DNA of 64,000 nucleotides from Candidatus Moraniibacteriota bacterium. GTDB taxonomy: Bacteria > Patescibacteriota > Minisyncoccia > Moranbacterales > UBA2206. This document shows, in pieces, positions 2,765 to 55,670 of this stretch. Below the pieces are notes generated by a model, which worked only from the letters and a program-made list of their open reading frames with translations, ran no database searches and had not been told where the DNA came from. Within the stretch, counting starts at the first letter, position 1; each line of letters starts with the position of its first letter. The translations under genes were made by a program, and so were the position numbers. The stretch lies in assembly GCA_049304095.1 (NCBI GenBank), contig JBAQNU010000029.1, positions 98,222 to 162,221 on the forward strand. The letters are read 5' to 3'.

Positions 2765-3541
2765 CTAATTCAAATGCGTAGGTTCTTGATCTGCCGTAAT
2801 TGCCTTCCACATAAATTCAAAAAGTTCCTTATGCAAGCGGATGATATTTTTGTTTTCGATTACCATTGCTATAACCGGCAAGGTGGTTTGGTGGATGAGG
2901 ATTTTGCTTGGTGTAATGGTAATGGAAGCCGAGAGCTGCATATCTTGTGGAAAAATTTTTATCTGCAAATTATATATCGCTTCGTTTTGTTTATATTTTC
3001 TGGCAATTTCCGAATCTTGGAGTAAAAGACGGTTATTGAGCTTTTTTTGTGCGCGTTTTTCCACAAAATTTTCAAAAAATCTTTGGTCTTCTGACATCCA
3101 CTTGGCGGAATCGCTGATAACCCAATAATCCTCTCCGAATTTCACTTCATCTAGGAGATCTAGATGGATATTTTTCACCGCTTCCACGCCTTCGTAGTAT
3201 TTAATTAGACTGCTTCCACCTTCTGCGCTATAGAGCGCCTTGAAATCAACTAATGATTCTTGAAGCTCTTTTTTCTTATTATCCATTATTCTTTCCAATT
3301 TTTCCGGATTTTCCGCAGAAAAAAGGGTTTTCCAGCCGATCTGCTCAACTTTCATGAGGCCTAATTGCTTTAATGATTCAACCGCCGAATAAACGGTGGT
3401 TCTTTTGACTTCTGAGGCCTTGGAAATGGCTAGAATAGTGGTTTTTCCCAAAGAAAGCGCGCTCAAATAAACTAGCGCTTCATTATCGCTAAGCCCTAAA
3501 TTAAGCAGTACTTTGTATAGTTTATTGTCCATATTTGGCAT
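2765..3541 (-). CDS. TrmB-like HTH transcriptional regulator (paralog 1 of 5)
   Basis: N-terminal wHTH pattern LGLSDNEALVYLSALSLG...ISKASEVKRTTVY shared with four other ORFs in the window. Divergent from the small-ORF module. Confidence 0.6.
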   Translation of the reverse strand: MPNMDNKLYKVLLNLGLSDNEALVYLSALSLGKTTILAISKASEVKRTTVYSAVESLKQLGLMKVEQIGWKTLFSAENPEKLERIMDNKKKELQESLVDFKALYSAEGGSSLIKYYEGVEAVKNIHLDLLDEVKFGEDYWVISDSAKWMSEDQRFFENFVEKRAQKKLNNRLLLQDSEIARKYKQNEAIYNLQIKIFPQDMQLSASITITPSKILIHQTTLPVIAMVIENKNIIRLHKELFEFMWKAITADQEPTHLN

Positions 3542-4768: not shown

Positions 4769-5557
4769 CTATCCTTTGTTCGTGATTATGTCTAGACTTG
4801 GTGTGGGATATTGTTTTAATTTGATTTCTGGCAGATTGTCCCAGGCCAATTCAAAGATCCATCTTAGAGTGTTATTGATTTCTGCGCTTTCTATGATTAC
4901 CGCCATCTGTTCTTTACTGGAGATGAGAGCGACTTTTTGATGACCATAGATATCAACTTCGACCGAGAATGGATAGCGGTCTTTTTTAATTAGCTTGCAA
5001 GACCGCAGATGCTGTTGATCCCGGGTGATGATACTCTCAGACAGATATTTTGTTTCTGGCAGAATCGCCCGGACGCGGATATTTTTTTTGACTCGTTTTT
5101 TAATATACCACTCAATCCAATCTTCACCCAGAATATTCCTCACATCTTCTGATCCGAAAGCGAGAATTTCTCCGGAATAGCGTAGCGCGTCATCATAGGC
5201 CTCCATCAAGCCTTCTTTCCCTTCATAAAATTTAATCTTTGGCTTCATCCCGCGGACGTTATAGATGGATTTTAGTTGTGGTAGGATTTCTGAAAACAAA
5301 GCCTCTTTCTTTTCCAGATCCTTTTTGATTTTTTCTGGATCTTCGCCGATAAATAGTCTTTTGGCGCCATTTAGCGTTTCTGCCACCAACCCGGCATTTT
5401 TGAGATCCAAGAGAATGTCATAGGCGGTTGTTCTTTTGATATTGGCCTTTTTGGAAATATCAATGACACTGGCTCCGCCCAATTCCAAGGCTGCGAGATA
5501 TACATCGGCTTTTCGACCAGTGAGCCCAAATTGTTCAAGAGTTTGTTTAGTGTCCAT
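4769..5557 (-). CDS. TrmB-like HTH transcriptional regulator (paralog 2)
   Basis: N-terminal LGGASVIDISKKANIKRTTAY wHTH. Paralogous to 2765..3541. Confidence 0.6.
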   Translation of the reverse strand: MDTKQTLEQFGLTGRKADVYLAALELGGASVIDISKKANIKRTTAYDILLDLKNAGLVAETLNGAKRLFIGEDPEKIKKDLEKKEALFSEILPQLKSIYNVRGMKPKIKFYEGKEGLMEAYDDALRYSGEILAFGSEDVRNILGEDWIEWYIKKRVKKNIRVRAILPETKYLSESIITRDQQHLRSCKLIKKDRYPFSVEVDIYGHQKVALISSKEQMAVIIESAEINNTLRWIFELAWDNLPEIKLKQYPTPSLDIITNKG

Positions 5558-7375: not shown

Positions 7376-7410
7376 TGCTTGCCTGCCGGAGCTTTGGCAT
7401 AGGCAGGAGC
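7376..7410. repeat. GC-rich hairpin element (CCTGCC...GGCAGG family) inserted in a partial tRNA D-arm copy
   Basis: TAGCTC-[hairpin]-CAGTTG flanks. Same family at 14241, 15096, 15402, 31696 and 44299. Confidence 0.55.
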
Positions 7411-10371: not shown

Positions 10372-11316
10372 TTAGTCCAATTTAATCTTATCACCATATC
10401 GAGTCATTTTCAATCCCGCGCCGGAAACGACTTGGTTTTTGTTTTTCGTGCTTCGGAGGGCCTTTAGGATTTCTTCAATTTGGTTAAAATTTTCCGAGGT
10501 GTTTTTTAACATTTTTCGTGACAATGCTTTTTGCAAAATTCTTTTTTGAATTGCAACTGGTAATCTTAGGATACTTTTCACTGAGAGATCTTGATTTTTC
10601 TTCCAAGCTTTTTCGGCTAGTTCTTCAATTACCGCATAATCTTCCCCAAAAGTTTTGGCGCTCTTTGCGAGCACTTGTTTTAAATTTGGGTTATAATTTT
10701 TTTCGAGATACGGAATTAGTTTATTTCTAATCTTATTACGCAGATAAATTGATTCTTTATTGGTCTTATCGATTCGATAAGTTAATTTGTTTGATTTTAA
10801 ATAATCAATAATTTCTTTTCTGCTTGTCTCAAGTAATGGACGAATAATTCTATTATTCTTGGGTTGCATAGCGGAAAGACCAGAGAGACCCGTTCCACGA
10901 ATGAGACGCATGAGCACAGTTTCTGCTTGATCATCAGCGTTATGGGCAACTACAATCAGATCAAACTTTCTTTTTTCTCGTACCTTTTCAAAAAAAGCAT
11001 AACGAATATCACGCAACTTTTCTTCAGACTTATTTTTTTCTCTAACTTTAGCTTTGAGAATTTCCAGCGGTAAACTATATTTATTGACTAATTTTTTCAC
11101 AAACTGTTCGTCTTTCTCGCTATCTTTCCCGCGCAAGCCATAATTAATATGCGCGATTGCCAATTCTAAATTATATTTATTTTGCAACTTGCAAAAGATA
11201 TCAAGAAGACATGTCGAGTCTGGTCCCCCAGAAACCCCCAAAACAATTTTTGCATCTCGCTCAAAAAGCGCATTGGCAAAAATAGTGTTTTGAATTTTTT
11301 TGATTAAGTTAGACAT
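10372..11316 (-). CDS. tilS: tRNA(Ile)-lysidine synthetase
   Basis: PP-loop VLGVSGGPDSTCLL. Conserved tilS-ftsH synteny. Confidence 0.8.
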   Translation of the reverse strand: MSNLIKKIQNTIFANALFERDAKIVLGVSGGPDSTCLLDIFCKLQNKYNLELAIAHINYGLRGKDSEKDEQFVKKLVNKYSLPLEILKAKVREKNKSEEKLRDIRYAFFEKVREKRKFDLIVVAHNADDQAETVLMRLIRGTGLSGLSAMQPKNNRIIRPLLETSRKEIIDYLKSNKLTYRIDKTNKESIYLRNKIRNKLIPYLEKNYNPNLKQVLAKSAKTFGEDYAVIEELAEKAWKKNQDLSVKSILRLPVAIQKRILQKALSRKMLKNTSENFNQIEEILKALRSTKNKNQVVSGAGLKMTRYGDKIKLD

Positions 11317-11893
11317 TTGTTGTAGCCTGTATTTTTCCTAATTCGTTTTTGATAATTTCAGCGACTTTTTGTATAGTTTCTTCCAGTTTACCCTCTTCAT
11401 TAATTACCTTGTAATCATAAATGTCTTGATGCTTCATCCACTCTTGCGAATATTCCATTCGTTCTTTGACATATTCCTCTGATACATCTTGCCTCCTCCT
11501 GATTCTACTCTCAAGGATTTGTAAACTAGGCGCCATAATAAAAATTGAGCGTATTTCAGGGTGAATTTTTTTGACAGTCATTACCCCTTGCCATTCTATT
11601 TTCCAAACAGTTATTTTGCCAGTTTTTTTAACGCGCTCGATCTCATCTTTGGTTACCCCGTAATAGTTTCCATTGTATTGCTTGGCCCATTCAATAAACT
11701 CATTACTCTCTATTTTGTTAATAAATTTTTCCTCAGATACAAACCAATAGGGAGTTCCATTTGATTCATTTGGCCGCATGGCCCTACTCGTAGTATTTAC
11801 GATTCTTTCGATAGGAAGGATTTTTTGCAAACCTTCCATAACTGAATCTTCTCCAGCGCCAGATGGCCCAGATATGATAAAAATATTTGACAT
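11309..11893 (-). CDS. gmk: guanylate kinase
   Basis: P-loop ISGPSGAGEDS. NMP-binding region TTSRAMRPNESNGTPYWF. Confidence 0.7.
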   Translation of the reverse strand: MSNIFIISGPSGAGEDSVMEGLQKILPIERIVNTTSRAMRPNESNGTPYWFVSEEKFINKIESNEFIEWAKQYNGNYYGVTKDEIERVKKTGKITVWKIEWQGVMTVKKIHPEIRSIFIMAPSLQILESRIRRRQDVSEEYVKERMEYSQEWMKHQDIYDYKVINEEGKLEETIQKVAEIIKNELGKIQATTNV

Positions 11894-11920: not shown

Positions 11921-13309
11921 TTATTCTGTGCTTTCTTTTTCTTTCTTCTCTTTTTTGACTTTCTTCACTTTCTTCTCGACTGGTTTTTCAGTTTCCTCTT
12001 TAGTTTCTTCTGCCTCAGTTTCTTTGACAACTTTCTCTTTCTTGGCTTTCCTTTCTTTTTTTACAGGCTCAGTTGTCTCTGGGGCAGTTACTTTCTCAGT
12101 GGTGAGGACCAATCCCATGCGGTGACTTTGTGGTTCAATAGAAAGAATTTTCCAAGCATATTCTCCTCCAATTTTAATCAAATCATTAATATTTTTTCCG
12201 GGATTTCGCTCTAGCATTTCACTGATGTGAGCCAGGCCGTGAATATCCTCATCAAGATAGACAAAAGCGCCAAAGTGATTTATTTTGTGCACTTTTCCGC
12301 TCACAACGTCCCCGATGCTATATTTCTTGGCCACCTCACTCCATGGATCAGCTTGTAAGGCGCGAATAGAAAGAGAAATTTTGTCATTATCAATGCCGAT
12401 AATTTTTGCACTTACCTTATCCCCCACTTTCACGATAGTTCGGGGATTTTCAATTAACTGCCATGCCAGTTCTGAGATGTGTACCAAGCCTTCGATTTTT
12501 TCCTCCAACCCTTCTGCTTTTTTGCCGTTAGAGAATTTGACAAAAGCACCAAAGTCAACCACTCCGGAAATTTCACCAGAGATCACATCGCCAACCTTAA
12601 AATTAGAAATGGCTTCTTTTTCTTTTTCACTCTGCGCGGCTTTTTCACTGGCAATCAATTTTTCTGCCTCTCGGTCAATATCCAAAATACAAACTTCCAT
12701 TTCTTTGCCGACTAATTTCTTGAGCAGGTTGAGAATTTTGTTCTTGTCACCATCTTCTACACGAGGATAATTTTGACTAGCTAGTTGTGAAACTGGCAAA
12801 AATCCAGCAATGCCGTTGATTTCCACCAAGAGTCCTCCCTTATTAGCGCTAATAACCTTAGTCTTAATTTTTTCTCCAGAATCTTTTTTCCGCTCAATAT
12901 CTTCCCAGGCTTTTTCATAGGACGCTTCACGAATGGAAAGTTCGATGTAGCCTTCTTCATTTTCCAGTTCCGTTACAGTCGCAGAAACTTTGTCTCCCAA
13001 TTTCATCTTCTGGGTGCCCATGCCATCTTTAATTTCCTTTCCCATCACAATGCCCGTTCCGAATGGTCCGAGATCAAGATAGATTTCACTAGAAGAAATT
13101 TCAAGCACTTTTCCAAAGATGGTGTCACCAACAACTGGAAACTCAATAGAGTTCTCAGCTAAAAGTTTTTCCATGAAAGACATCTCTGTTTCTTTTTCCA
13201 CGGCCACAGGCGTAGTCTTTTTAGTTTTCACTGGAGTAGTGTCGATCTTTTGATCACTGTCAGCAAGCTTGTCTACTTCGCTAGCTAATTTGCTTAGAAT
13301 ATCACTCAT
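11921..13309 (-). CDS. rpsA: 30S ribosomal protein S1 (four S1 domains, Lys/Glu-rich tail)
   Basis: Repeated GDxVxGKV...GLxHISE S1 signatures. Confidence 0.8.
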   Translation of the reverse strand: MSDILSKLASEVDKLADSDQKIDTTPVKTKKTTPVAVEKETEMSFMEKLLAENSIEFPVVGDTIFGKVLEISSSEIYLDLGPFGTGIVMGKEIKDGMGTQKMKLGDKVSATVTELENEEGYIELSIREASYEKAWEDIERKKDSGEKIKTKVISANKGGLLVEINGIAGFLPVSQLASQNYPRVEDGDKNKILNLLKKLVGKEMEVCILDIDREAEKLIASEKAAQSEKEKEAISNFKVGDVISGEISGVVDFGAFVKFSNGKKAEGLEEKIEGLVHISELAWQLIENPRTIVKVGDKVSAKIIGIDNDKISLSIRALQADPWSEVAKKYSIGDVVSGKVHKINHFGAFVYLDEDIHGLAHISEMLERNPGKNINDLIKIGGEYAWKILSIEPQSHRMGLVLTTEKVTAPETTEPVKKERKAKKEKVVKETEAEETKEETEKPVEKKVKKVKKEKKEKESTE

Positions 13310-13534
13310 TTGATTATATTTTTCGCAGCCGACATTAAAGCTACGGGATAATGATTAAAAATGTCAAAAAATTTATTAAAATAAAAAAATTTCCCGTGTG
13401 TTGAGGAAATAATTAAGAAAATGCCACGAAAGGCAAGAAAGCCGAGAATTAAAGCATTCCCCTATTCAATTTTCTTAAATATTTAACTCTACTAAACAGC
13501 CTAGCAGGCTTTTTGAGTTTTGGCAAGTCTTTTG

Positions 13535-13578
13535 TATAAAAAATAATTGGCACACGCGAGTTGCTCTGCGTGTGCCAA
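13535..13578 (-). terminator. rho-independent terminator (11-bp stem TTGGCACACGC...GCGTGTGCCAA plus T-run on minus strand)
   Basis: Perfect hairpin read directly, immediately downstream of 13592..13948(-). Confidence 0.6.
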
Positions 13579-13591
13579 TGGGCGGGAGTTT

Positions 13592-13948
13592 TTAAGCCCC
13601 ACCAGGATAATAACCCGCCAAATTTGCGAAATCTTTTTCTTTTTGGGTGGCATCGGGAAACAGGCAGTTGTCAATGTTTATCGCCTCTATAATTAGAGGC
13701 TCTGCCTGGTTCCAGATGGCAGGCGGAATTTCCACGAGATGTGTGCAGGAGCCATCACAAGCCATAATGCTGGTCTCACGCGTTGGACCGCCTTGGCCAG
13801 GGGGTTTGCCGCGCTCACCGGTTAGTTTTGTGTGGATATGAAAGCTTATACCTGAAAATAGCTTCACACACCAGGCTTGAGTGTGATCAAGATATCCTCC
13901 TGGCCCAACTCGACCGCAGTCTTTGTCGTAAAAAAGTAATCCTTTCAT
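13592..13948 (-). CDS. hypothetical protein, GC-rich relative to surroundings
   Basis: Strong SD (AGGGGGGG) and its own terminator. Composition differs from neighbours. Confidence 0.45.
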   Translation of the reverse strand: MKGLLFYDKDCGRVGPGGYLDHTQAWCVKLFSGISFHIHTKLTGERGKPPGQGGPTRETSIMACDGSCTHLVEIPPAIWNQAEPLIIEAINIDNCLFPDATQKEKDFANLAGYYPGGA

Positions 13949-14052
13949 TAAGCCCCCCCTTTTTTTTATTGTAAATATTTTGAGCTGGTTCAGCTCGGCT
14001 ATAGACTAACTATATAATTAAGCGCATTATTGCGAAAAAGTCAAGTCTTTTG

Positions 14053-14124
14053 TGCCCTCAGTAGGAATCGAACCTACATCTCATCCTTAGGACGGATTTG
14101 CTCTATCCATTGAGCTATGAAGGC
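14053..14124 (-). tRNA. tRNA-Arg (CCT)
   Basis: GCCTTCATAGCTCAATGGATAGAGC...GTCCTAA...GGTTCGATTCC. Confidence 0.7.
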
Positions 14125-14145
14125 TTGGATACTATGGATGTTCTC

Positions 14146-14222
14146 TGGTGGACGATACTGGGTTCGAACCAGTGACCTTACGAATGTGAATCGTACGCTC
14201 TAACCAACTGAGCTAATCGTCC
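14146..14222 (-). tRNA. tRNA-Val (CAC), CCA encoded
   Basis: GGACGATTAGCTCAGTTGGTTAGAGCGTACGATTCACATTCGTA...CCA. Confidence 0.8.
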
Positions 14223-14240
14223 GAATAGTAGAGGATGAAA

Positions 14241-14276
14241 CTGCTTGCCTGCCGGAGCTTCAGCGCAGGCAGGAGC
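14241..14276. repeat. GC-rich hairpin element (CTGCTTGCCTGCCGGAGCTTCAGCGCAGGCAGG) inside a duplicated tRNA-Val 5-prime fragment
   Basis: Flanked by a second copy of AGCTAATCGTCC (the tRNA 5-prime end). Confidence 0.55.
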
Positions 14277-14292
14277 TAATCGTCCAACTCTG

Positions 14293-14365
14293 TGGACCTG
14301 AGGAGGATCGAACTCCTTGCCTCTTCCATGCCATGGAAGCGCTCTACCAATTGAGCTACAGGCCC
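14293..14365 (-). tRNA. tRNA-Ala (GGC)
   Basis: GGGCCTGTAGCTCAATTGGTAGAGCGCTTCCATGGCATGGAAG...GGTTCGATCC. Confidence 0.75.
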
Positions 14366-14497
14366 GACTTGCTAAAATATAAATAAAGAATATTGCTCAT
14401 CAATCATAACAGTTAATATGAGATAGTCAATTTAAAGCTCAGTTTGCGGTTATGGGCAAAAAATACTACACTACTAATAATTATCCTGGCTACTATT

Positions 14498-16276
14498 ATG
14501 GCAAATCTAACTGAAAAGATAGGAAATATCTGGAGGGAAATCAAAAACCAGCCAAAAGACATTTGGTTCTTCTGTTTGTTTTTATTGACTTTTCCTCTGA
14601 GTATAAGAAAAGTGATGATGCAATTTCCCATCAAAGGTGCTTTTAATGAATATGCCAGTGCATATATCTACTTGTCGGATTTGTTTTTTCTTCTGACAAT
14701 GCTAGTCGGGTTGTTTCTTATAATACGCAACAAAAAGCAAGATATGTCAAGTAGTAAGGGGAACTTTTTGACACTTATCCACAGGTTATTCTGTGACAAA
14801 GCTGTGGATAACTCTAATACGCCAGGAGTATCACTAAGAAAAATAACTTTAATTAAAGCCATAAATCCATATTTTCGTGCAATTTTTCTGGGCCTAATCT
14901 TTATAATGCTGTTTGATCATTACTTATGGGATATCTGGCAGGGGCAAGTTCTGTTTTGGGTGGTTTGCGGATTTTTAGTGGGCATTGAGTTTCTAAAATG
15001 TTCCACCCCGAAGAATTCCAAATTGTTCCACGTGGAACATTCTGGAATCACGTGGCAGACGTGGGACAATTTAGGATACAATGGAGTCGCAAAATGTTCC
15101 ATGCCTGCCTATCGGAGCCTCGGCGCAGGTAGGTGGAACATTTTCAGGAAAAGTATTTTCATAATCCCCCTTATTTTAGTTATTTGCTCATTTGTCTCAG
15201 TAAATTGGTCAGAAAATCAGCTAATTAGTCTATATCGATCATTTCGCTTGCTTGAGTTATATCTGTTGTTCATATATATTTCTTTGCGTTTTGTGCCTTA
15301 TTGTGTTGGATGTTTTGCAAAATGTTCCACCCTCCTACGTCAAGACTCCGGCGGGCAGGCGCGGAACAATTATGCAGCTGGAGATTCTGAAAATGCTCCG
15401 CGCCTGCCTGCCGAAGTTTTAGCGCAGGTAGGTGGAGCATTCGGCATTATTATGTTTACAGGAGCGATTCAATCTGTGGTTGGTGTTGTTCAGGTTATTA
15501 TACAACATTCAGTTGGATTATTTTGGCTAAGAGAAAGCATTGTTGCGCCAAACATTGCCGGCGTGGCAAAGATTATTATCAATCATCAAGCCTATATTAG
15601 AGCTTATGGCTTATTCCCGCACCCCAATATTCTGGGTGGATTTTTGTTTTTTTCGATTATAATCACATTGCTTTGCCAAAAAATGTTCCACGTGGAACAT
15701 TTCAAGGAGCAAGATAGTATGAATTGTTCCACGTGGAACATTTCCGGGGGGGATTTTTGGAAAATTGTTCCACGTGGAACAATTTGGAATTATTTAATTT
15801 GGCTTGCTTTGATTATTCAGATTACTGGAATTATTTTTTCTTTCTCTAAATCAGCTATCTTGGCGCTAATAGTTGCTGTTATATATATAATTGTTCCACG
15901 TGGAACATTTCAGGTGGTTAATTTGAAAAAATTGTTCCACGTGGAACAATTTAGGATGCTTCTAATCGCAGGACTTGTCATATTAGGCGGACTGTTTTTC
16001 TTTAGAGTTGAAGTTTATGACTTGTTCGCAAAATCTTTTCAGGAAAGAAAACTCTATATGTTCATCTCAGAGCAGATCATCGCCGATAGTCCAATAGTTG
16101 GTGTCGGGACGGGACAGTTTATTGTGAATGCAGAAAAGTTATTTCCTAATCTTGAAGTCTGGCAATACCAGCCGGTGCATAATGTGTTTCTTTTAATTTG
16201 GTCAGAATGGGGGATTGTCGGGTTGGTTTTGTTTATTTTGTTTTTGTGGAAATTGCTCCACTTTAAAAAATATTAA
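14498..16276 (+). CDS. O-antigen ligase/polymerase-like (Wzy_C family) polytopic membrane protein carrying multiple in-frame palindromic-repeat insertions
   Basis: C-terminal signature GVGTGQF...HNVFLLIWSEWGIVGL and SKSAILALIVAVI. At least 7 perfect 18-bp palindromes translated in all three frames (LFHVEH, CSTWN, VPRGT) without breaking the ORF. ATG at 14498 preferred over the TTG at 14444. Confidence 0.55.
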   Translation: MANLTEKIGNIWREIKNQPKDIWFFCLFLLTFPLSIRKVMMQFPIKGAFNEYASAYIYLSDLFFLLTMLVGLFLIIRNKKQDMSSSKGNFLTLIHRLFCDKAVDNSNTPGVSLRKITLIKAINPYFRAIFLGLIFIMLFDHYLWDIWQGQVLFWVVCGFLVGIEFLKCSTPKNSKLFHVEHSGITWQTWDNLGYNGVAKCSMPAYRSLGAGRWNIFRKSIFIIPLILVICSFVSVNWSENQLISLYRSFRLLELYLLFIYISLRFVPYCVGCFAKCSTLLRQDSGGQARNNYAAGDSENAPRLPAEVLAQVGGAFGIIMFTGAIQSVVGVVQVIIQHSVGLFWLRESIVAPNIAGVAKIIINHQAYIRAYGLFPHPNILGGFLFFSIIITLLCQKMFHVEHFKEQDSMNCSTWNISGGDFWKIVPRGTIWNYLIWLALIIQITGIIFSFSKSAILALIVAVIYIIVPRGTFQVVNLKKLFHVEQFRMLLIAGLVILGGLFFFRVEVYDLFAKSFQERKLYMFISEQIIADSPIVGVGTGQFIVNAEKLFPNLEVWQYQPVHNVFLLIWSEWGIVGLVLFILFLWKLLHFKKY

Positions 16277-16295
16277 ATTGTTCCACGTGGAACAA
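15023..16295. repeat. array of palindromic units TTGTTCCACGTGGAACAA (perfect copies near 15023, 15684, 15724, 15766, 15891, 15933, 16278; degenerate or nested copies near 14996, 15093, 15318, 15405)
   Basis: Read directly. Irregular spacing. Some copies split at their centre by a GC hairpin element. Confidence 0.85.
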
Positions 16296-16383
16296 TTTGA
16301 TTTAAGATCCTCTTATCCCGAGGGGCGAAGTGGATATTGCGAATAATTTGACAAATAGATTATTTTATTATGTAATATTAAAA

Positions 16384-17124: not shown

Positions 17125-17901
17125 TTGGCGACAAGTAATATTATGCTTGAAAAAGAACTGCAAAATGCTGGTTTAAGCGAGCGAGAATCTAAGGTATATT
17201 TGACTTGTCTTGAAATGGGGGAGACGAGCATCGCAAAATTGGCCAAAAAAGCCCAAATAAAGAGGACAACAGTCTATCTTTTAATTGGATCTCTGCAAGA
17301 AAAGGGCCTTATTGGCCTCATCAAGAAAGGCAATAAGACTTTGTATATTTCGGAGGATCCACGTAAAATTGCAGAAAAGATGGAGCAGAGGAAGTCAGCT
17401 ATTGAAAAGATTTTGCCAGAATTATTGTCGATGACGAATTTTACTAACATAAAACCGCGTATAAAGTATTTTGAAGAAAAGCGGGCGGTTGAAGATGTAT
17501 ATCGAGATACGCTGCTATATCCTGATCAAGAAATACTTTCTTGGTTTCCCGCCCTGCTTGTCCAGGATGATAAAGATTTTTTTAATGATTATTATATTAA
17601 AAAAAGACTAGAGAAAAAGATTTGGGTGAAGGCGATTGCGCCTGACACTGTGGATATGCGAGAATATTTCAATCGCGACAAAACAGAATTGCGTCAAACA
17701 AAACTAATTTCTCAAGATATCTTTAATATTGAAGTTGGAATTTTGCTTTATGGAAAAAGTAAAGTAGGAATTGTATCCTATGAAGAAGGCATGGGACTTA
17801 TCATTGAAAGCCCAAAAATTTATAAAAGCTTAAGAAATATTTTTGACCTGGCGTGGAATTCGTTGCCGGAAAATAAACAACAGCAATCTATTGTTGAATA
17901 A
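17125..17901 (+). CDS. TrmB-like HTH transcriptional regulator (paralog 3)
   Basis: N-terminal LSERESKVYLTCLEMGETSIAKLAKKAQIKRTTVY. Confidence 0.6.
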   Translation: MATSNIMLEKELQNAGLSERESKVYLTCLEMGETSIAKLAKKAQIKRTTVYLLIGSLQEKGLIGLIKKGNKTLYISEDPRKIAEKMEQRKSAIEKILPELLSMTNFTNIKPRIKYFEEKRAVEDVYRDTLLYPDQEILSWFPALLVQDDKDFFNDYYIKKRLEKKIWVKAIAPDTVDMREYFNRDKTELRQTKLISQDIFNIEVGILLYGKSKVGIVSYEEGMGLIIESPKIYKSLRNIFDLAWNSLPENKQQQSIVE

Positions 17902-17928: not shown

Positions 17929-17949
17929 GTGTCTAAGTTGTGGATAAGT

Positions 17950-23656: not shown

Positions 23657-24436
23657 ATGGAACATTTGATTGAACCACTGAAAAACTTAGGACTAAGCGA
23701 AAAAGAAGTGCTGGTCTATCTGGCATTACTTCAACTTGGCTCAGCGACGCCCTATCAGGTTGCCAAAAAATCGGGGATTAAAAGGCCAACAGCCTATGTG
23801 ATTGCGGAAGAATTGGTAAAAAAAGGTTTGGTTGTGCATATTCCTGGCGAAGAAAAAAAGCGCTATATTGCCAAAAACCCGGATGCTTTTTTTGAAGAGC
23901 AAGAAGAAAAACTGGCAATGGCGAGAAAAATCTTGCCAGAACTGCGCTCATATCAGAAAAATGTGGCGGAAAAACCGAGCATATTGTATTTCGAAGGGCT
24001 TGAGGGATTGCATCAAGCCTATGAGTATCGGCAGAAAGAGCTGCATGGAAGGGAGATCGTGGGATTTTTTGCATCTAATGAGGACTCAACGCCTGAAGTG
24101 ACGCAGTATTTTGTGAAATGGAATGAATATCGAGAAAAACATAATACGCCGGTGCGGGGAATTACAGTCGATGCGCCGGAGCTTTTGCCTTATGCTAAAT
24201 TTTTTGGAGAAGGCGTGGGAGCTATGACACTTAAATTTTTGCCTCGCAATATGTATGGTTCTAAAATTTCCATCGAATCTTGTGATAATCAATTTGTGCG
24301 CATATTCCTTTTTGAAAGCGTGGAAACGCTAATTATTGAGTCGCCAAAATTTGCAGTGGCCGTAAAAGAAATCTTTGAATTAGTCTGGAAATCGACGGAG
24401 GGGAAATATGAAAAGCCGGCGACGTGGGTTAGGTAG
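23657..24436 (+). CDS. TrmB-like HTH transcriptional regulator (paralog 4)
   Basis: LGLSEKEVLVYLALLQLGSATPYQVAKKSGIKRPTAY. Confidence 0.6.
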   Translation: MEHLIEPLKNLGLSEKEVLVYLALLQLGSATPYQVAKKSGIKRPTAYVIAEELVKKGLVVHIPGEEKKRYIAKNPDAFFEEQEEKLAMARKILPELRSYQKNVAEKPSILYFEGLEGLHQAYEYRQKELHGREIVGFFASNEDSTPEVTQYFVKWNEYREKHNTPVRGITVDAPELLPYAKFFGEGVGAMTLKFLPRNMYGSKISIESCDNQFVRIFLFESVETLIIESPKFAVAVKEIFELVWKSTEGKYEKPATWVR

Positions 24437-33550: not shown

Positions 33551-33623
33551 GGATCCTTAGCTCAATGGCTAGAGCACCTCGTTTACACCGAGGGGGTTAT
33601 AGGTTCGAGTCCTATAGGGTCCA
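33551..33623 (+). tRNA. tRNA-Val (TAC)
   Basis: GGATCCTTAGCTCAATGGCTAGAGCACCTCGTTTACACCGAGG...GGTTCGAGTCC. Confidence 0.8.
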
Positions 33624-33627
33624 CAGA

Positions 33628-33950
33628 GCCGAGTTAGCTCAGTGGTAGAGCAGAGGACTGATTTTCGGTCCGCTCTGAAGTAATTCAGAGATGAGAATTG
33701 GATGAATTCGAGGAAGCCTAAAACTAATTTTATTAGAAATGGTAATCTCGAGCTAAGCTTCAAAGGGCGTAAGGTTTTGAAGAAAGTGTAGAGACTAGCA
33801 AGTGAGTCCCAACAATAATCTTGCATTAGCGTCCGATATCCTATTTTGCTAAGTAGCAAAAGGATAATGAAATAGTCCGATCCTTGGGGAAACTCAAGAA
33901 AAATGAGTAGGAAAATCCTTGTGTCCCCGGTTCAATCCCGGGACTCGGCA
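33628..33950 (+). tRNA. tRNA-Phe (GAA) interrupted by a ~251-nt intron between positions 33 and 34
   Basis: Exons GCCGAGTTAGCTCAGTGGTAGAGCAGAGGACT / GAAAATCCTTGTGTCCCCGGTTCAATCCCGGGACTCGGCA closely match a canonical bacterial tRNA-Phe. Confidence 0.7.
33660..33910 (+). other. putative group I self-splicing intron in the tRNA-Phe anticodon loop
   Basis: 5-prime exon ends in U paired with a G of the internal guide GGUCC (P1 GGACU/GGUCC). Intron ends in G. R-like AGAGACUAGC and S-like AAUAGUCCG elements. No ORF. Confidence 0.55.
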
Positions 33951-34010: not shown

Positions 34011-34694
34011 ATGAGAAAAGATAAAGTCAAAGCGCTAGCGCTTAGAAAAAAAGGTTTTAGCTATAATGAAATTAGCAAAAAACTAGAAGTTCCTAAAAGC
34101 ACGCTAAGTTATTGGTTGGCAGATGTAGTAATTTCACAAAAAGCGAAAAACAGAATTGCAAGTAGGGTTTTTGCAGGAAGTGTGAAGGGGCTGATTGAGA
34201 GAAATAAAAATCAAACGGCACTAGCGAAAGAAAGAGCAAAAGCTATTCGAGAAATTGCAAAGAAAGAAGTTAGAAATTTAATGAAAAACAAATTATTTTT
34301 GGTGGGCATTTCCCTGTATTGGGCGGAGGGATATAAAAAGGGTGCTTATGGAAGTAAATGGAAAGCAGTGGATTTTGCCAATTCCGATCCTGAGTTAGTG
34401 AAAATAATGATGAATTTTTTCAGAAAAGTTTGCAGAGTAGAAAGTGAAAAGATAAAAGTTCAGCTAATTGCTCATAAAAATATTGATATGGACGAAGCGG
34501 TGAGCTATTGGTCTGGGCTTATGAAATTATCGAAAAGTCAGTTCATGAAAACAAGTTGTGCGGTGAGTAGCGCGAGCAAAGGCAAGAGAAACAAAAACAG
34601 TTTGACGCACGGAACAGTTCATATTAGGATAAATGATGTAAGGCTATTTTTTCGGATTATTGGCTGGATCGATGGATTGAAGTTGTATATATAG
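34011..34694 (+). CDS. HTH-containing protein with a single LAGLIDADG-like motif (LFLVGISLYWAEGY); candidate free-standing homing endonuclease
   Basis: N-terminal HTH (GFSYNEISKKLEVPKSTLSYWL). Motif resembles the LAGLIDADG core. Position next to the intron-containing tRNA. Confidence 0.35.
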   Translation: MRKDKVKALALRKKGFSYNEISKKLEVPKSTLSYWLADVVISQKAKNRIASRVFAGSVKGLIERNKNQTALAKERAKAIREIAKKEVRNLMKNKLFLVGISLYWAEGYKKGAYGSKWKAVDFANSDPELVKIMMNFFRKVCRVESEKIKVQLIAHKNIDMDEAVSYWSGLMKLSKSQFMKTSCAVSSASKGKRNKNSLTHGTVHIRINDVRLFFRIIGWIDGLKLYI

Positions 34695-35572: not shown

Positions 35573-37072
35573 ATGGCAAAAAATGTATTAAATTTAAATC
35601 AAAAAAGTGCAAAAAAATTCTTTCTTAGTCAAGAATGTTATTTGAACATCGAATTGCCGCCATATTTTAAGTTTGATGAGTTGCTTGCAGAAGTTGACAA
35701 CGAATCAAATTCGTTGATATTAAGCGAAAAAGATTTAAAGAAAGCGAAGAAAAATGAAACAATAAATCATATTTTATATGGCAACAAGGATGGTAAATAT
35801 GCTTGGAGAAAATATGAAATTATAAACCCACTGATGTATGTATCGCTGGTAAACGTTATTACAGAAAAGGATAATTGGGATTTTTTAAAAAATAGATTTA
35901 ATGAATTTCAAAAAGATAGCAATATAGAATGCGAAAGCATCCCAGTTTTAGCTGGCACTAAATCAAAACAAAGAGCATCTCAGATTTTACGCTGGGTCAA
36001 TAGAATTGAAAAAAGGTCACTTGCACTAGCGTTGGAATATAAGTATTTATATCAAACAGATATTTCTGATTGTTATGGTTCTATATATTCTCATTCATTG
36101 CCTTGGGCCATACATACCAAAGAAACATCGAAAAATAATAGGGGCTTCAATGGTTTGTTTGGAAATAAGATTGACCAGCACATACAAGCTATGTCTTATG
36201 GAGAAACAAATGGCATACCGCAAGGGAGCACTTTAATGGACTTTATAGCAGAAATTGTTCTTGGTTATGCGGATATGCAATTGTCAGATAAATTAAAAAA
36301 AGAATTAAGGGAAAAGAAGTTTCATATTTTGAGATATAGAGATGATTATAGAATTTTTGTAAACGATGTTGCTGACGGGGACATTATTTTAAAGTGCTTG
36401 AGTGAAGTTTTATTAAACTTAGGATTCAGATTGAATGCCAATAAAACATCCTTTAGTGATGATGTTATTGGCGGGTCAATAAAAAAAGATAAAATTGACG
36501 AATTACGAATAGAGGAAACACCGAAAAAGTTATCCAAAAAGGGACTACTTAGACAATTGCTTATAATTCAACAACTGGGTAAGCAATTTCCTAATTCTGG
36601 AACAGTAGTTAGGCGACTCTCTCACATTTTGGATAATGTTAAACCAAAGGATTTTTATTTGCAAGAGAAAATAATAGTAAGTGTGCTTGCTGATATAGCC
36701 TATAACAACCCAAACTCCTTTCCTCTTGTGGCTGGTTTAGTTTCAAGCTGTATCGCCAAGGTATCAAAAAAAGAGAAAGGGGAGCTGTTAATTTCAATAC
36801 AAAAAAAGGTTTGCTTGCTTCCAAATGCTGGCCTTTTGGAAATATGGACGCAAAGGATAGCTCTTGGAATAAAACTTAAATTGGAATTAAATGAAAAACT
36901 TTGTTGTTGTGTTTACGACTCAAATTTTAAGATATTCGAAACGAATTGGATAGAATATCCCAGAATTAAGGCTATTATAGACGACGGTTCTTATGTTGAT
37001 ATGGATAAAATAGAGAAACTTAAGCCGATAATAAGCAATAAAGAAGTCCAAATATTTACTTATGGCGGTTAA
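35573..37072 (+). CDS. reverse transcriptase, defence-associated/Abi-UG type (RT domain plus alpha-helical C-terminal extension)
   Basis: RT motif A DISDCYGSIY, motif B-prime GIPQGSTLMDFIAEIVL, motif C RYRDDYRIF and a downstream NANKTSF. No retron VTG. No DGR SQ motif. Confidence 0.75.
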   Translation: MAKNVLNLNQKSAKKFFLSQECYLNIELPPYFKFDELLAEVDNESNSLILSEKDLKKAKKNETINHILYGNKDGKYAWRKYEIINPLMYVSLVNVITEKDNWDFLKNRFNEFQKDSNIECESIPVLAGTKSKQRASQILRWVNRIEKRSLALALEYKYLYQTDISDCYGSIYSHSLPWAIHTKETSKNNRGFNGLFGNKIDQHIQAMSYGETNGIPQGSTLMDFIAEIVLGYADMQLSDKLKKELREKKFHILRYRDDYRIFVNDVADGDIILKCLSEVLLNLGFRLNANKTSFSDDVIGGSIKKDKIDELRIEETPKKLSKKGLLRQLLIIQQLGKQFPNSGTVVRRLSHILDNVKPKDFYLQEKIIVSVLADIAYNNPNSFPLVAGLVSSCIAKVSKKEKGELLISIQKKVCLLPNAGLLEIWTQRIALGIKLKLELNEKLCCCVYDSNFKIFETNWIEYPRIKAIIDDGSYVDMDKIEKLKPIISNKEVQIFTYGG

Positions 37073-42511: not shown

Positions 42512-42650
42512 AGCAATGAGAAATTGATGTATAATGGGTCTAGGATAAGCGAAATTTGGTTTTGGTGTCACTTTGTGGTTGACGGGCGTTAGGTGACTAT
42601 TCGGCGATGTAGTGCATAATAGGCATAATTTTTTATTAAAAAATATTTTT

Positions 42651-43397
42651 ATGGAACAAGAACTATTAGCTTTGGGGCTGACTTGGAATGAAGTTAAAGC
42701 ATATAAGAGTCTTATGAAACTGGGCGAGACGCAAGTTGGTGGAATTATCACTGATCTCAAGATTCATCGCCAGATTGCCTATAACGCCCTTGACGCACTG
42801 GAAAAGCGCGGGATGGTGACGAAAACGAGCAAGAACAAAGTTCAACATTATAAAATAGTCGATCCAGAAGTGATTGTGGAAAATGTCAAAAAGCAGGAAG
42901 TTTTGGCAGAAAGGTTGGCGCGGACGATCAAGCACGAGATGAAAAAAAGTCGGCATGAGCATGAAATTAGTCTCTATAATGGCCGAGAAGCGGCTCGGCG
43001 ATTTTTTATCCAGTCATTTAAGAAATTCCCAGTTAGCGCTACTACCTACATCATGGGGGTGCCCGTTAATGACTATACTGAAGCAATGGGGGCGGATTTT
43101 CTGGCTGGCCCCTATAATAAGATTCGCAATCAGAGAGATATCCGTTCTCGATTACTGGTAAGTGAGAGAATGCGTGAGGAAAACAAGGACTATGAAAAGC
43201 TAGTTAATCCGGTTTTGCGCGAGACACGCTATTTGCCCTATCAAGTACTCAATCCAATCTCCACTCTCATTTGGGAGGATCACATTTCTTTTATTTCTAT
43301 AAAGCCAGAATTCTTTATTATTGATATTTTGAGCCAAGCTTTTCGGGACTCGTATAAGGAGCATTTTGATATGCTCTGGAAGATGGCGAAAAAATAG
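42651..43397 (+). CDS. TrmB-like HTH transcriptional regulator (paralog 5, most divergent)
   Basis: LGLTWNEVKAYKSLMKLGETQVGGI..IHRQIAY. Same overall length and layout. Confidence 0.45.
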   Translation: MEQELLALGLTWNEVKAYKSLMKLGETQVGGIITDLKIHRQIAYNALDALEKRGMVTKTSKNKVQHYKIVDPEVIVENVKKQEVLAERLARTIKHEMKKSRHEHEISLYNGREAARRFFIQSFKKFPVSATTYIMGVPVNDYTEAMGADFLAGPYNKIRNQRDIRSRLLVSERMREENKDYEKLVNPVLRETRYLPYQVLNPISTLIWEDHISFISIKPEFFIIDILSQAFRDSYKEHFDMLWKMAKK

Positions 43398-44177: not shown

Positions 44178-44789
44178 TTATTTTTCTTCTTTTTCAATTT
44201 TTGCAATAATCTTCGGAATCCGTTTGAAATCTTTGATCAGTGTTTCGCGCATTCCGCCATTATAGAGCGCCGCGGCGGGGTGGTAGAGAGTATAGAAAAC
44301 CTGCCTACCGGCAGGCAGGCCTGGCTTGCCCATGCCTTCAATTTCTCGGCGCATGGCTTTGCCGTGGACTTCGGAAATCTTGAATCCGGGTAAAAATCTT
44401 TCCATGGAATGGCGGCCGAGAGTGACGATTAATTTTGGCTGGATGATTTCAATTTGCGCAAGAAGCCATGGCCAGCAAGTGGAGATTTCTTCGGGCAGTG
44501 GGTCGCGATTTTCCGGTGGGCGACATTTACAGACATTGGCGATGTAGACGTCTTCGCGTTTGAGCTTGATCGCGTCCAGCATTTCGTTCAAGAATTTTCC
44601 AGCTGATCCAATAAAAGGCATGCCAGTTTCGTCCTCTTTTTTTCCAGGCGCTTCGCCAATAAACATAATTTTCGCGCTCTCTGATCCAGCGCCAGGGACG
44701 ACCTGAATGCAACCTTTGCGCAAAGCACATTTGGTGCAGGCGAACATTTCCGCGTTTAGTTTTTCGAGTTGGTCTTTTTTGGATTCCAT
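44178..44789 (-). CDS. uracil-DNA glycosylase, family 4 (Fe-S)
   Basis: CTKCALRKGC...IMFIGEAPGKKEDETGMPFIGSAGKFL. Confidence 0.8.
   Translation of the reverse strand: MESKKDQLEKLNAEMFACTKCALRKGCIQVVPGAGSESAKIMFIGEAPGKKEDETGMPFIGSAGKFLNEMLDAIKLKREDVYIANVCKCRPPENRDPLPEEISTCWPWLLAQIEIIQPKLIVTLGRHSMERFLPGFKISEVHGKAMRREIEGMGKPGLPAGRQVFYTLYHPAAALYNGGMRETLIKDFKRIPKIIAKIEKEEK
44299..44318. repeat. GC hairpin element copy (CCTGCCTACCGGCAGGCAGG) lying in-frame inside the UDG gene
   Basis: Encodes the GKPGLPAGRQV segment of the ORF. Confidence 0.4.
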
Positions 44790-53317: not shown

Positions 53318-54085
53318 ATGCAAAATAAAAAATATTTTTTTGGTTTGGCGGTTTCGATGGTTGCTTTTTTGGGAGTTTTTGGATTGAGGAGCGAGGCTGG
53401 AGCGGCAAATGTTGGATGTTATGATGCTATTGCTGGATCTTGCAATGAATTAGATAAAAGCGGGGGTGCTACATGTAGCTCTCCTGCTACCTGGTGCGCG
53501 AGTGATGCCAGGTGTAACGGTACTGTCTGTGCTTCAACCACCATCCCAACTTCTGGTACTCAGACTCCGACCGAATTTACCAATCCACTCGGATTTAGTT
53601 CAATCGACGGTGTGCTGACGAGTCTTTTGGGATCGCTTAAGGGTTTTGTGGTAATTTTGGCGATTATTTTTATTGTAATCGGCGGAATTATGTATATGCT
53701 GTCCGCCGGAGATCCAAAGATGGTCGAGCAAGCAAAAAAAAGCTGGCTCTATGCGGTGATTGGTCTGGCTATTGTGGTTGCAGCGCCGACATTTCTCAAA
53801 CAAGTGCAAGAAATTTTGGGTGGAACTTTGACCGGTGGAGGAATCGAAACTGCGCGTAGCGTGAAAGATATTGCTAATGGAATTTTGAAATTTCTCTTGT
53901 CGATTACGGGAATCATTGCTATAATCAGTTTAGTGATTGCTGGTGGAATGTATATGACAGCTTATGGCGAAGAAAAACAAATCACCACAGCAAAAAGTAT
54001 TGGAAAGTGGGCGATTGTGGGCATCGTTGTGGCGCTCGGTTCGCTCACCATCATCCAGCAAGTTTCCAAATTGATTACTGGTTAG
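53318..54085 (+). CDS. TrbC/VirB2-like (T4SS-pilin-type) membrane protein with Cys-rich N-terminal domain and two pilin-like modules
   Basis: Signal peptide. Cys-rich ectodomain. Duplicated motif LxxIxGxIAIIxxVIAGxMYMxAxGEEKxxxxAK. Confidence 0.5.
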   Translation: MQNKKYFFGLAVSMVAFLGVFGLRSEAGAANVGCYDAIAGSCNELDKSGGATCSSPATWCASDARCNGTVCASTTIPTSGTQTPTEFTNPLGFSSIDGVLTSLLGSLKGFVVILAIIFIVIGGIMYMLSAGDPKMVEQAKKSWLYAVIGLAIVVAAPTFLKQVQEILGGTLTGGGIETARSVKDIANGILKFLLSITGIIAIISLVIAGGMYMTAYGEEKQITTAKSIGKWAIVGIVVALGSLTIIQQVSKLITG

Positions 54086-54131
54086 AGTTAGGGATAAAAA
54101 TAAAATTATAAAATAGAATGGAGGTGTTGAA

Positions 54132-54491
54132 ATGAAAAACAAAATTAAATTAGCAGGTTATTCAGTGCTTTCTGTTGCGATGACTTTTCCAGCTGTTGCT
54201 TTTGGCGCTTTTGATCCGAACGTTGGTGGTGCTACTGGTTTGCCAAAAAGCTCTCTGATGGATATTATCAGCAACATCATGCAATGGCTTCTCACAGCAG
54301 TGGGTATTGCTGGCGTGATTGGATTTGTGATTGCAGGCCTTCTCTACCTCACCGCAGCGGGAGATGAAAAGAAAATCGCAACAGCCAAACAAGCCATGCT
54401 CGCTTCTATTATCGGTGTGATCGTGGCGATTGCTGGAGTTGTTGCTCTCAACGTGGCGAAAAGTTTGCTCGGAGGAACGCAAAATTTCTAA
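54132..54491 (+). CDS. TrbC/VirB2-like pilin paralog
   Basis: Signal peptide plus ISNIMQWLLTAVGIAGVIGFVIAGLLYLTAAGDEKKIATAKQAM. Confidence 0.5.
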   Translation: MKNKIKLAGYSVLSVAMTFPAVAFGAFDPNVGGATGLPKSSLMDIISNIMQWLLTAVGIAGVIGFVIAGLLYLTAAGDEKKIATAKQAMLASIIGVIVAIAGVVALNVAKSLLGGTQNF

Positions 54492-54515
54492 CAAATATTT
54501 TTTTGAAATTTCAAA

Positions 54516-54548
54516 AACCACTCCAAGATCGGGGTGGTTTTGTTTTTG
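54516..54548 (+). terminator. rho-independent terminator
   Basis: CCACTCC...GGGGTGG followed by a T-run. Confidence 0.5.
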
Positions 54549-54595
54549 ATTTTTTTTGTGCTATAATTTTTGTATAATAAATTAAACTTAAAAAA

Positions 54596-54961
54596 ATGAC
54601 AAAAAAAATCATTTCCACAATTAGTCTGGGCGCAACATTTTTATTTGTGTCTGCGCAAAAAGTTTTTGCTGATTGGGCTGCTGGCATGAATGCAGCAGGA
54701 AGTTATGGTCTTCCAGAGGCGAGACTTTCTACGATCATTGCTAATATTCTCGATTGGCTGCTCACAATTGTGGGTGTGGTGGGGGTAATTGGTTTTGTGA
54801 TTGCTGGCATCATGTATCTCACGGCTAATGGAGATGAGAAAAAAATCGGGGACGCTAAAAAAGCCATGATGGCTTCCATCTATGGAGTGCTTGTAGCGAT
54901 TTGTGGCATGGTGGTGCTTTGGGCAGCGACAAATATATTGAGTGGAACACCTTTATTTTAA
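54596..54961 (+). CDS. TrbC/VirB2-like pilin paralog
   Basis: IANILDWLLTIVGVVGVIGFVIAGIMYLTANGDEKKIGDAKKAM. Confidence 0.5.
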   Translation: MTKKIISTISLGATFLFVSAQKVFADWAAGMNAAGSYGLPEARLSTIIANILDWLLTIVGVVGVIGFVIAGIMYLTANGDEKKIGDAKKAMMASIYGVLVAICGMVVLWAATNILSGTPLF

Positions 54962-54975
54962 GTTCTAAAAACAAT

Positions 54976-55659: not shown

Positions 55660-55670
55660 TCTTAAAAAAT

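Follow-up and report, generated by a model that had tools for sequence, protein, structure and literature searches.

Why should a short perfect palindrome recur inside a single gene and nowhere else in the tens of kilobases around it? The question is raised by a 64-kb stretch of DNA from a Candidatus Moraniibacteriota bacterium (part of contig JBAQNU010000029.1; "the window" below means this whole stretch), in which an earlier note had picked out a repeated palindrome within a gene for an O-antigen-ligase-like protein and had likened it to the Rickettsia palindromic elements (RPEs). The window is chromosomal, with housekeeping genes for S1, FtsH, TilS, Gmk, GyrA, IF-2, NusA and trigger factor. 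In bacteria the main chromosome-segregation system is ParABS, in which parS is the centromere-like site where ParB is loaded. Judged by its sequence, the palindrome that recurs here is parS in its canonical form, and it is very probable that across Moranbacteria, tiny bacteria as yet uncultured, a chromosomal parS array lies within the coding sequence of one conserved gene, whose product is a membrane protein resembling WaaL and Wzy_C.

The earlier note had counted at least seven perfect copies of an 18-bp palindrome. The positions that it gave are accurate to 1 nt; the count, however, belongs to the 16-bp core: the exact 18-mer TTGTTCCACGTGGAACAA is present three times in the window (at 15765, 15932 and 16278), whereas the core TGTTCCACGTGGAACA is present seven times, with all seven copies falling within ~1.3 kb (15024–16294; Table 1) and none in the remaining 62 kb. 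There was no other match to the core in the 64 kb with up to three mismatches allowed, and 100 shuffles gave a mean of 0.13 matches at ≤3 mismatches, with a maximum of two per shuffle. Six of the seven perfect sites are inside the open reading frame (ORF), where all three frames are occupied, giving LFHVEH, MFHVEH or LFHVEQ in one frame, CSTWN in another and VPRGT in the third, and the ORF stays open across every copy, as the note had described. Also as described, the palindrome has no stop codon in any frame, which holds for the C/G variant TGTTCCACGTGGAACA, and each site therefore adds a short loop peptide. The seventh perfect site is different in that it begins 3 nt past the TAA stop codon (16274–16276), which its A-rich flank overlaps by one base; it cannot supply the stop codon, as had been supposed, and the statement that all copies share one ORF is correct for the six other perfect sites and for all of the split sites described below, but not for this one. 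In orthologues, unlike in the window, the C-terminal site is within the ORF. A start-to-start spacing of 41 bp, or about four helical turns, recurs among the sites and may derive from orthologous loop units; a phasing of neighboring ParB dimers is speculative. In the parS-bearing gene of one orthologous locus, L127, there are three parS triplets with spacings of 41 and 50 bp, an arrangement that points to segmental duplication inside that array.

The identity of the palindrome was apparent from comparison with published sites. The 16-mer TGTTCCACGTGGAACA matches parS2 and parS3 of Pseudomonas aeruginosa, which are experimentally defined perfect ParB-binding sites, at 16 of 16 positions (PMC4368675 Table 1). 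It is also given as the parS of Pseudomonas putida in a review, differs by one base from the Myxococcus xanthus consensus, and fits the general parS consensus tGTTNCACGTGAAACa (PMC7022226 Table 1). When one genome per bacterial species was scanned, the exact 16-mer turned up in many phyla, often two to five times per 8 kb; by our own arithmetic, about 140 single matches to it are expected by chance in 596 Gb. Of the 120 loci returned with the exact 16-mer, 20 encoded the ParB signature AGERRxRA, in its strict form, no more than 8 kb away; a looser pattern added more, and two of these proteins were confirmed by Pfam to combine ParB_N, HTH_ParB and ParB_C. The identity to defined parS sites, together with the nearby parB genes in other phyla, argues that we are dealing with an ordinary bacterial centromere site and not with a new palindromic element. 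Clusters of the same 16-mer were found in other members of the Candidate Phyla Radiation (CPR), namely a Kerfeldbacteria locus (L120) and a Patescibacteria metagenome-assembled genome (L026), where they occupy gene boundaries and the inside of valS. The conserved DNA reaches ~22 bp, in the form AAW-core-WTT, with A at 89–98% at positions −3 and −2 and only A or T at −1. We considered a 24-bp palindrome as a lineage-specific form of the site and rejected it: a metagenome scan showed that the 24-mer is also frequent in GC-rich contigs from other phyla, which in some cases carry parB as well, and the flanks of the core are accordingly not lineage-specific. As a separate observation, a locus from an uncultured member of the Bacilli (L058, 2034–2102) has two perfect parS sites at a distance of 53 bp, with a Noc-type site, ATTTCCCGGGAAAT, exactly between them.

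The gene that hosts the array has its longest possible ORF at 14444–16276 (610 aa, start TTG), although the N-termini of orthologues indicate that the true start is probably the ATG at 14498, which gives a protein of 592 aa. NCBI has a protein of Candidatus Moraniibacteriota, annotated as "O-antigen ligase family protein", with which its product is 100% identical. The note's reading of the gene as Wzy_C/WaaL-like was borne out by a Pfam Wzy_C match above the gathering score (54.8 bits versus a cutoff of 31.7, E = 1.2e-14, residues 454–598 of the 610-aa ORF), by a WaaL-like polytopic fold on comparison with WaaL (PDB 7tpj; 13% sequence identity), and by hydropathy, which indicates ~12 transmembrane (TM) segments. 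H561, R517 and P559 are invariant across 119 homologues; a ligase activity on an undecaprenyl-linked glycan is putative. The protein departs from WaaL and Wzy_C in several respects: its cytoplasmic loops are expanded by peptides that DNA sites encode, one TM segment is permuted between subgroups, and the gene sits in a bacterium without lipopolysaccharide. The permuted segment, YFRAI..FDHYLWDIWQGQ (window residues ~150–190 of the 610-aa ORF, about 14890–15010), is mid-protein in close homologues, C-terminal in more distant ones and in a third position in two; possibly the permutation was produced by recombination between parS repeats.

The arrangement is not peculiar to one contig. Seven orthologous loci of ~20 kb each (L121–L127) were compared, with sites counted at ≤1 mismatch except that one of the four in L124 is the canonical TGTTTCACGTGAAACA, at two mismatches. 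They contain 9, 4, 9, 4, 5, 11 and 12 parS sites, every one inside the orthologue of the host gene, and there is no parS at ≤1 mismatch in their flanks (~18 kb each, ~125 kb in total), where the sole weaker match is a conserved two-mismatch sequence in gyrA. Six further metagenome contigs with the host gene have 28 of their 29 sites inside it, and the note's claim that the palindrome is confined to one gene thus extends from the window to its relatives. Intact host-gene ORFs of 1.5–2.1 kb are present in all seven loci, and gene order is conserved in part: gyrA is 0.7–5.4 kb away in six of them, with none within reach in L124.

At the protein level, host-gene homologues formed 240 clusters at E ≤ 1e-30, and at least two parS pentapeptides were present in 228 of the 237 homologues retrieved, the highest number in one protein being 18. 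The proportion was 119 of 120 among the closest homologues (90% clusters), with a mean of 6.4 pentapeptides versus 0.002 in shuffles, and 109 of 117 among the further representatives of 50% clusters (E 1e-87 to 1e-45). In an alignment of 119 sequences, in which homologues are ~45% identical, the sites are at orthologous positions and each keeps a constant frame (Table 1); V(P/S)RGT at residue ~525, in 62 sequences, is missing from the window gene. Since positions and frames are retained at ~45% identity, most copies appear to be old and not recent insertions. The presence and absence of individual copies, which the note had proposed to compare, gave a mixed picture: most sites are shared at 45% identity, yet some units differ at 85%, as in homologue P0002, in which two of the window sites are missing and a nested insert takes the place of a site that is intact in the window. 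A tblastn search with the host gene against 120 parS-bearing loci of other phyla gave no matches, indicating that the association of parS with this gene is lineage-specific.

What is it, then, that selection has retained, the peptide or the DNA? VPRGT, CSTWN or FHVE occurs 50 times in the eight genes for which DNA sequence was available, and in 49 of these cases it is encoded by the exact parS nucleotides, compared with an expectation from codon usage of 0.3%, 0.3% and 1.5% per occurrence, respectively, for the parS codon set, and it follows that selection acts on the DNA. That the feature is one of DNA, read through in three frames, was a claim of the earlier note that this analysis strengthens. 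The canonical TGTTTCACGTGAAACA would create TGA in frame 0, and all six sites of the orthologous loci that have T/A-variant half-sites occupy frame 2, in which this does no harm. When the sites were mapped onto the protein, as the note had proposed, all of the intact and split sites, as well as two DnaA boxes, were in the alternate loops 76–117, 170–218, 275–316, 397–431 and 467–487, which are predicted to be cytoplasmic because they are rich in K and R. The conserved loops 336–377 and 507–562, home of the invariant residues, have no sites. In the structure model the segments with a predicted local distance difference test score (pLDDT) below 50 (88–104, 177–213, 285–296 and 415–421) are the site-bearing loops, and the placement of sites in low-confidence cytoplasmic loops would fit a working membrane protein that tolerates peptides dictated by DNA.

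Not all of the copies are intact, and the degenerate or split copies that the note had listed proved to be real. Each of the four in the window consists of two 8-nt half-sites around an insert, and all four are within the ORF. The 54-nt insert of the first carries a perfect parS (parS 1) at its center; this nested architecture, CST-PKNSKLFHVEQFRITGQA-WN, is present in 11 homologues. The other inserts are of 30 nt (consensus CCTCCTACGCCAAGGCTCCGGCGGGCAGGC) and are exactly between TGTTCCAC and GTGGAACA, in either orientation and with no target duplication; there are three copies in the window, four in L121 and two each in L123 and L126, with variants of 21 nt in L125 and 39 nt in L124. Of four composites folded, three form long hairpins (z −3.9 to −5.6) and one, the inverted copy at 15323 in the window (z 0.0), does not. 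In the protein family, inserts of 7, 10, 14–15 and 18 residues are common, and those of 18 residues hold an inner parS, for example FH-PEESGIVPRGTIPDHGAG-VE. At the DNA level the insert lengths were multiples of three in every case seen, which is what selection on the reading frame would produce. No such split sites were found among the 120 parS loci of other phyla.

The 30-nt insert belongs to a lineage-specific family of GC-rich palindromes. One member, the 20-nt perfect palindrome CCTGCCTRCCGGYAGGCAGG, is present in 10 exact copies across the window and four Moranbacteria loci, and not once in the 244 further loci examined, ~240 of them from other phyla; nine of the copies are intergenic and the tenth, in the window, is in frame in a minus-strand ORF that is uracil-DNA-glycosylase-like by our reading of its translation. 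It is this GC-rich palindrome, and not parS, that behaves like an RPE or a repetitive extragenic palindromic (REP) element, and the RPE-like behavior described in the note therefore fits the hairpin, which the note had left undistinguished and which splits parS, is intergenic and is in frame in another gene, but not the palindrome for which it was proposed. The hairpin resembles REPs and bacterial interspersed mosaic elements (BIMEs) in being a short, GC-rich, imperfect and lineage-specific palindrome dispersed between genes in both orientations, but differs from them in inserting exactly at the parS dyad, with no target duplication, and in being able to bear a parS at its tip. No REP-associated tyrosine transposase (RAYT) or IS200-type transposase was found among the ORFs scanned, in a scan that was neither exhaustive nor systematic. 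An RNA-level role of the 30-nt hairpin was considered and set aside: relative to the coding strand it is found either way round, a point in favor of an element at the level of DNA, and no clear covariation was seen. Candidate origins for a palindrome at the dyad of another include insertion at a hairpin tip by a transposase, template switching from one hairpin to another at a replication fork, and gene conversion within the array.

Table 1. Coordinates of the host gene, parS sites, GC-rich palindromes and DnaA boxes. Positions are those of the window unless a locus or a reference residue is named.
Feature	Position	Strand	Details
WaaL/Wzy_C-like polytopic membrane-protein gene hosting the parS array	14498..16276	+	ORF from TTG 14444
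Perfect parS 1	15024..15039	.	Frame 1, LFHVEH; nested within split outer parS
Perfect parS 2	15684..15699	.	Frame 1, MFHVEH; perfect palindrome reaches 22 bp, 15681-15702
Perfect parS 3	15725..15740	.	Frame 0, CSTWN; 41 bp after parS 2
Perfect parS 4	15766..15781	.	Frame 2, VPRGT; 41 bp after parS 3; 24-bp perfect palindrome 15762-15785
Perfect parS 5	15892..15907	.	Frame 2, VPRGT
Perfect parS 6	15933..15948	.	Frame 1, LFHVEQ; 41 bp after parS 5; 24-bp perfect palindrome 15929-15952
Perfect parS 7	16279..16294	.	Begins 3 nt past stop codon
Split and nested site	14999..15068	.	Half-site TGTTCCAC, 54-nt palindromic insert, degenerate half-site GTGGGACA
Split parS	15095..15140	.	TGTTCCAT, 30-nt GC-rich hairpin, GTGGAACA; hairpin fold z = -3.9
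Split parS	15323..15368	.	30-nt hairpin, opposite orientation; degenerate right half-site GCGGAACA
Split degenerate parS	15394..15439	.	TGCTCCGC, 30 nt, GTGGAGCA
Remnant half-site TGCTCCAC at C-terminus	16254..16261	.	Orthologues have an intact ...WKLFHVEQ site here
Aligned FHVE site	Reference residue ~399		In 61 sequences
Aligned CSTWN site	Reference residue ~412		In 45 sequences
Aligned VPRGT site	Reference residue ~426		In 53 sequences
Aligned VPRGT site	Reference residue ~468		In 63 sequences
Aligned FHVE site	Reference residue ~482		In 63 sequences
parS triplets of L127	L127 10680/10721/10771; 10959/11000/11050; 11379/11420/11470		Within 10680-11485
CCTGCCTRCCGGYAGGCAGG, intergenic copies (9)	L121 9561; L122 7558; L123 2076/2203/3334/8713/8934; L126 7829/9674		
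CCTGCCTRCCGGYAGGCAGG, window copy	44300-44319		In frame in ORF 44178-44789, minus strand; encodes ...GKPGLPAGRQVFY...
Longer hairpin relatives (CTGCTTGCCTGCCGGAGCTT..GC..AGGCAGGAGC)	7377-7406; 14243-14271		Beside tRNA genes; nhmmer E ~1e-5 versus 30-nt insert model
DnaA box TTATCCACA	14775-14783	+	Perfect, in frame (LIHR), cytoplasmic loop of host gene
DnaA box TGTGGATAA	14803-14811	-	Perfect, inverted relative to first, in frame (AVDN), same loop
DnaA box	17939-17947		Perfect; 11 nt beyond gyrA stop; kept in L121 and L126

Could the palindrome nevertheless be a selfish mobile element of the RPE type, one that inserts into coding DNA and survives where the frame is kept? There is a real likeness, in that palindromic DNA of DNA-level origin is in frame within an ORF, is read in several frames and adds loop peptides; the three occupied frames of an intact ORF, the units that come and go between close homologues such as P0002, and the tandem 41-bp units, which suggest local duplication, would all suit such an element. 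RPEs, on the other hand, are about 100–150 bp long, are scattered over many genes and the spaces between genes, and are not known to have a binding protein, whereas the window element is of 16–24 bp, is restricted to a single gene and is a site with a known protein partner. The failure to find dispersal, either in the rest of the window (62 kb, at three mismatches) or in the ~125 kb of flanks (at ≤1 mismatch), together with the known protein partner, leads us to conclude that it is not an RPE; a sequence identical to universal parS that adjoins parB in many phyla, at positions and in frames that are orthologous at ~45% identity, leaves that explanation highly unlikely. We also consider it unlikely that the array is a set of operators for another DNA-binding protein, for instance a nearby TrmB-like helix-turn-helix (HTH) protein, that would regulate the surface-glycan gene and resemble parS through coincidence or convergence. 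A TrmB-like gene is indeed close to the array (17125–17901) and has a matching downstream location in both L121 and L122, the vicinity showed no parB, and the conserved site, AAW-core-WTT, is longer than the 16-mer. A match at 16 of 16 positions to an experimentally defined parS would, however, be an improbable coincidence, the extended 24-mer is shared with other phyla, in some cases beside parB, seven to 12 operators along 1.3 kb of coding sequence would be an unusual regulatory layout, and the TrmB paralogues scattered in the window (five copies) have no parS beside them.

The remaining two explanations concern the protein. If the pentapeptides were a selected loop motif and the palindrome its by-product, their recurrence at conserved loop positions would be accounted for, but not that three unrelated peptides are encoded by one DNA sequence in three frames, nor that one site is outside the ORF; these two facts rule out a protein motif, the loops are moreover of low model confidence, and the single codon set in 49 of 50 occurrences effectively refutes this explanation, to which we give almost no credence. 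The opposite suggestion, that the array is non-coding and the ORF spurious or a pseudogene, long merely because parS is free of stops, draws on the fact that an array of such sites would by itself tend to stay open. It is scarcely tenable for the gene as a whole, given a Wzy_C domain, a WaaL fold and many residues invariant across 119 sequences in the non-repeat segments, DNA-level inserts that are all multiples of three, and ORFs that are intact in seven of seven loci, where decayed orthologues had been named by the earlier note as grounds for abandoning its reading. The note had also allowed for a binding-site array within a spurious ORF, and in this the array proved correct and the spurious ORF did not.

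The parS array in the host gene can be compared with two kinds of known parS arrangement. Chromosomal arrays, such as parS1–4 of P. aeruginosa, the 10 sites of Bacillus subtilis and those of M. xanthus, where 22 sites form a dense array (PMC7022226), likewise have multiple copies clustered in one chromosomal region. They differ from the array described here, which is packed in frame into ~1.3 kb of one protein-coding gene, with a cluster of seven sites in the window, as many as 12 in the orthologous loci and, as inferred from one homologous protein, as many as 18, and whose host gene is the same throughout the lineage, with no parAB nearby and origin proximity only suggested. Single parS sites within genes are also known: nine of 10 parS sites of P. 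aeruginosa are within coding sequences (PMC4368675) and the parS of plasmid SCP2 is inside parT (PMC12260392). These are likewise translated as part of an ORF, but there is one per gene and the genes are unrelated, in contrast to an array in one gene whose sites occupy orthologous loop positions, recur at a spacing of 41 bp and include copies that are nested or split by a hairpin.

Chromosomal parS sites usually lie near the replication origin, and proximity to an origin is only weakly supported here. The cumulative GC skew has a local minimum at the 5′ end of the host gene in five of eight loci (the window, L121, L123, L125 and L126), and no such minimum in L122, L124 and L127. Two of the three perfect DnaA boxes (Table 1) are in a host-protein loop of low pLDDT, and the position of the first (gene offset 277) is kept in L121, L123 and L126; the boxes may be an origin-related or DnaA-titrating cluster, with no dnaA gene within reach. 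In addition to the weak support for an origin, several other points weigh against regarding the array as the working centromere of these bacteria. Its confinement to one gene was judged on partial genomes, and copies elsewhere are possible. Pfam scans of ORFs and a six-frame motif scan found no ParA, ParB or DnaA genes in the 64-kb window, the six-frame motif scan found no ParB signature in the seven 20-kb orthologous loci, and we found no published work on parS or ParB in Patescibacteria, CPR, Moranbacteria or Parcubacteria that would attest a Moranbacteria ParB. Finally, the usual binding of a ParB dimer would not be expected at the split sites.

Several other features of the window were recorded. 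The five TrmB-like HTH paralogues (~260 aa) are encoded at 2765–3541, 4769–5557, 17125–17901, 23657–24436 and 42612–43397. Upstream of the host gene, between S1 and a tRNA cluster, 740 bp (13310–14050) are relatively GC-rich (0.47) and without a convincing ORF; Rfam gave no match in it and three tRNAs only in 13250–14500, and the stretch may be a decayed gene, relatives having a 228-aa gene in the corresponding interval. At 33650–33899 a group I intron (Rfam, 75 bits) is just downstream of a tRNA (33551–33623) and is followed by a small transposase-like HTH ORF and a reverse-transcriptase ORF (RVT_1), at 34011–34694 and 35573–37072. Three ORFs in succession at 53318–56405 have C-terminal domains like those of type IV secretion system (T4SS) pilins and TrbC.

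Taken as a centromere, the array is a known element in an arrangement of which we found no description, in that a whole local array is in frame in a single gene, one host gene is kept across more than 200 protein clusters, and sites are split by, or nested with, a second palindrome. We infer binding of these sites by a Moranbacteria ParB and a role for them in chromosome segregation or in loading of SMC (structural maintenance of chromosomes) complexes. As in the ParABS systems of the literature, ParB dimers would recognize the intact sites, load and spread to form a partition complex over the host gene, while each parS would be read through in its own frame as a short peptide (CSTWN, FHVE(H/Q) or VPRGT) in a predicted cytoplasmic loop and the function of the membrane protein would keep the frame open. 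The same DNA would then be under two constraints, nucleotide selection for ParB sites and frame selection for the membrane protein, and with this dual constraint insertions and deletions in the array, hairpins included, would come in multiples of three.

It is a more speculative and rather improbable proposition that the array is an obligate "coding centromere", acting through membrane tethering of ParB–parS or through ParB-gated expression of a glycan enzyme, with the hairpin a new type of palindrome-into-palindrome element. If so, coupled transcription, translation and membrane insertion may tether ParB–parS to the membrane, perhaps together with a nearby origin marked by the in-frame DnaA boxes, in cells whose segregation toolkit is minimal; alternatively, ParB occupancy would gate expression of the surface-glycan enzyme through the cell cycle. 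A hairpin that is mobile or self-templating may switch single centromere sites off, or back on at cruciform extrusion, and the hairpin-split and nested sites raise the question of how palindromes grow inside palindromes. Many of the "hypothetical" loop peptides (CSTWN, VPRGT and FHVEH) that annotated proteins contain are mere by-products of sites in the DNA. The array is a clear natural case of binding-site and reading-frame constraint on one stretch of DNA, useful for the study of overlapping-code evolution, and parS in a WaaL-like gene provides a sequence marker for locating the centromere in hundreds of Moranbacteria assemblies.

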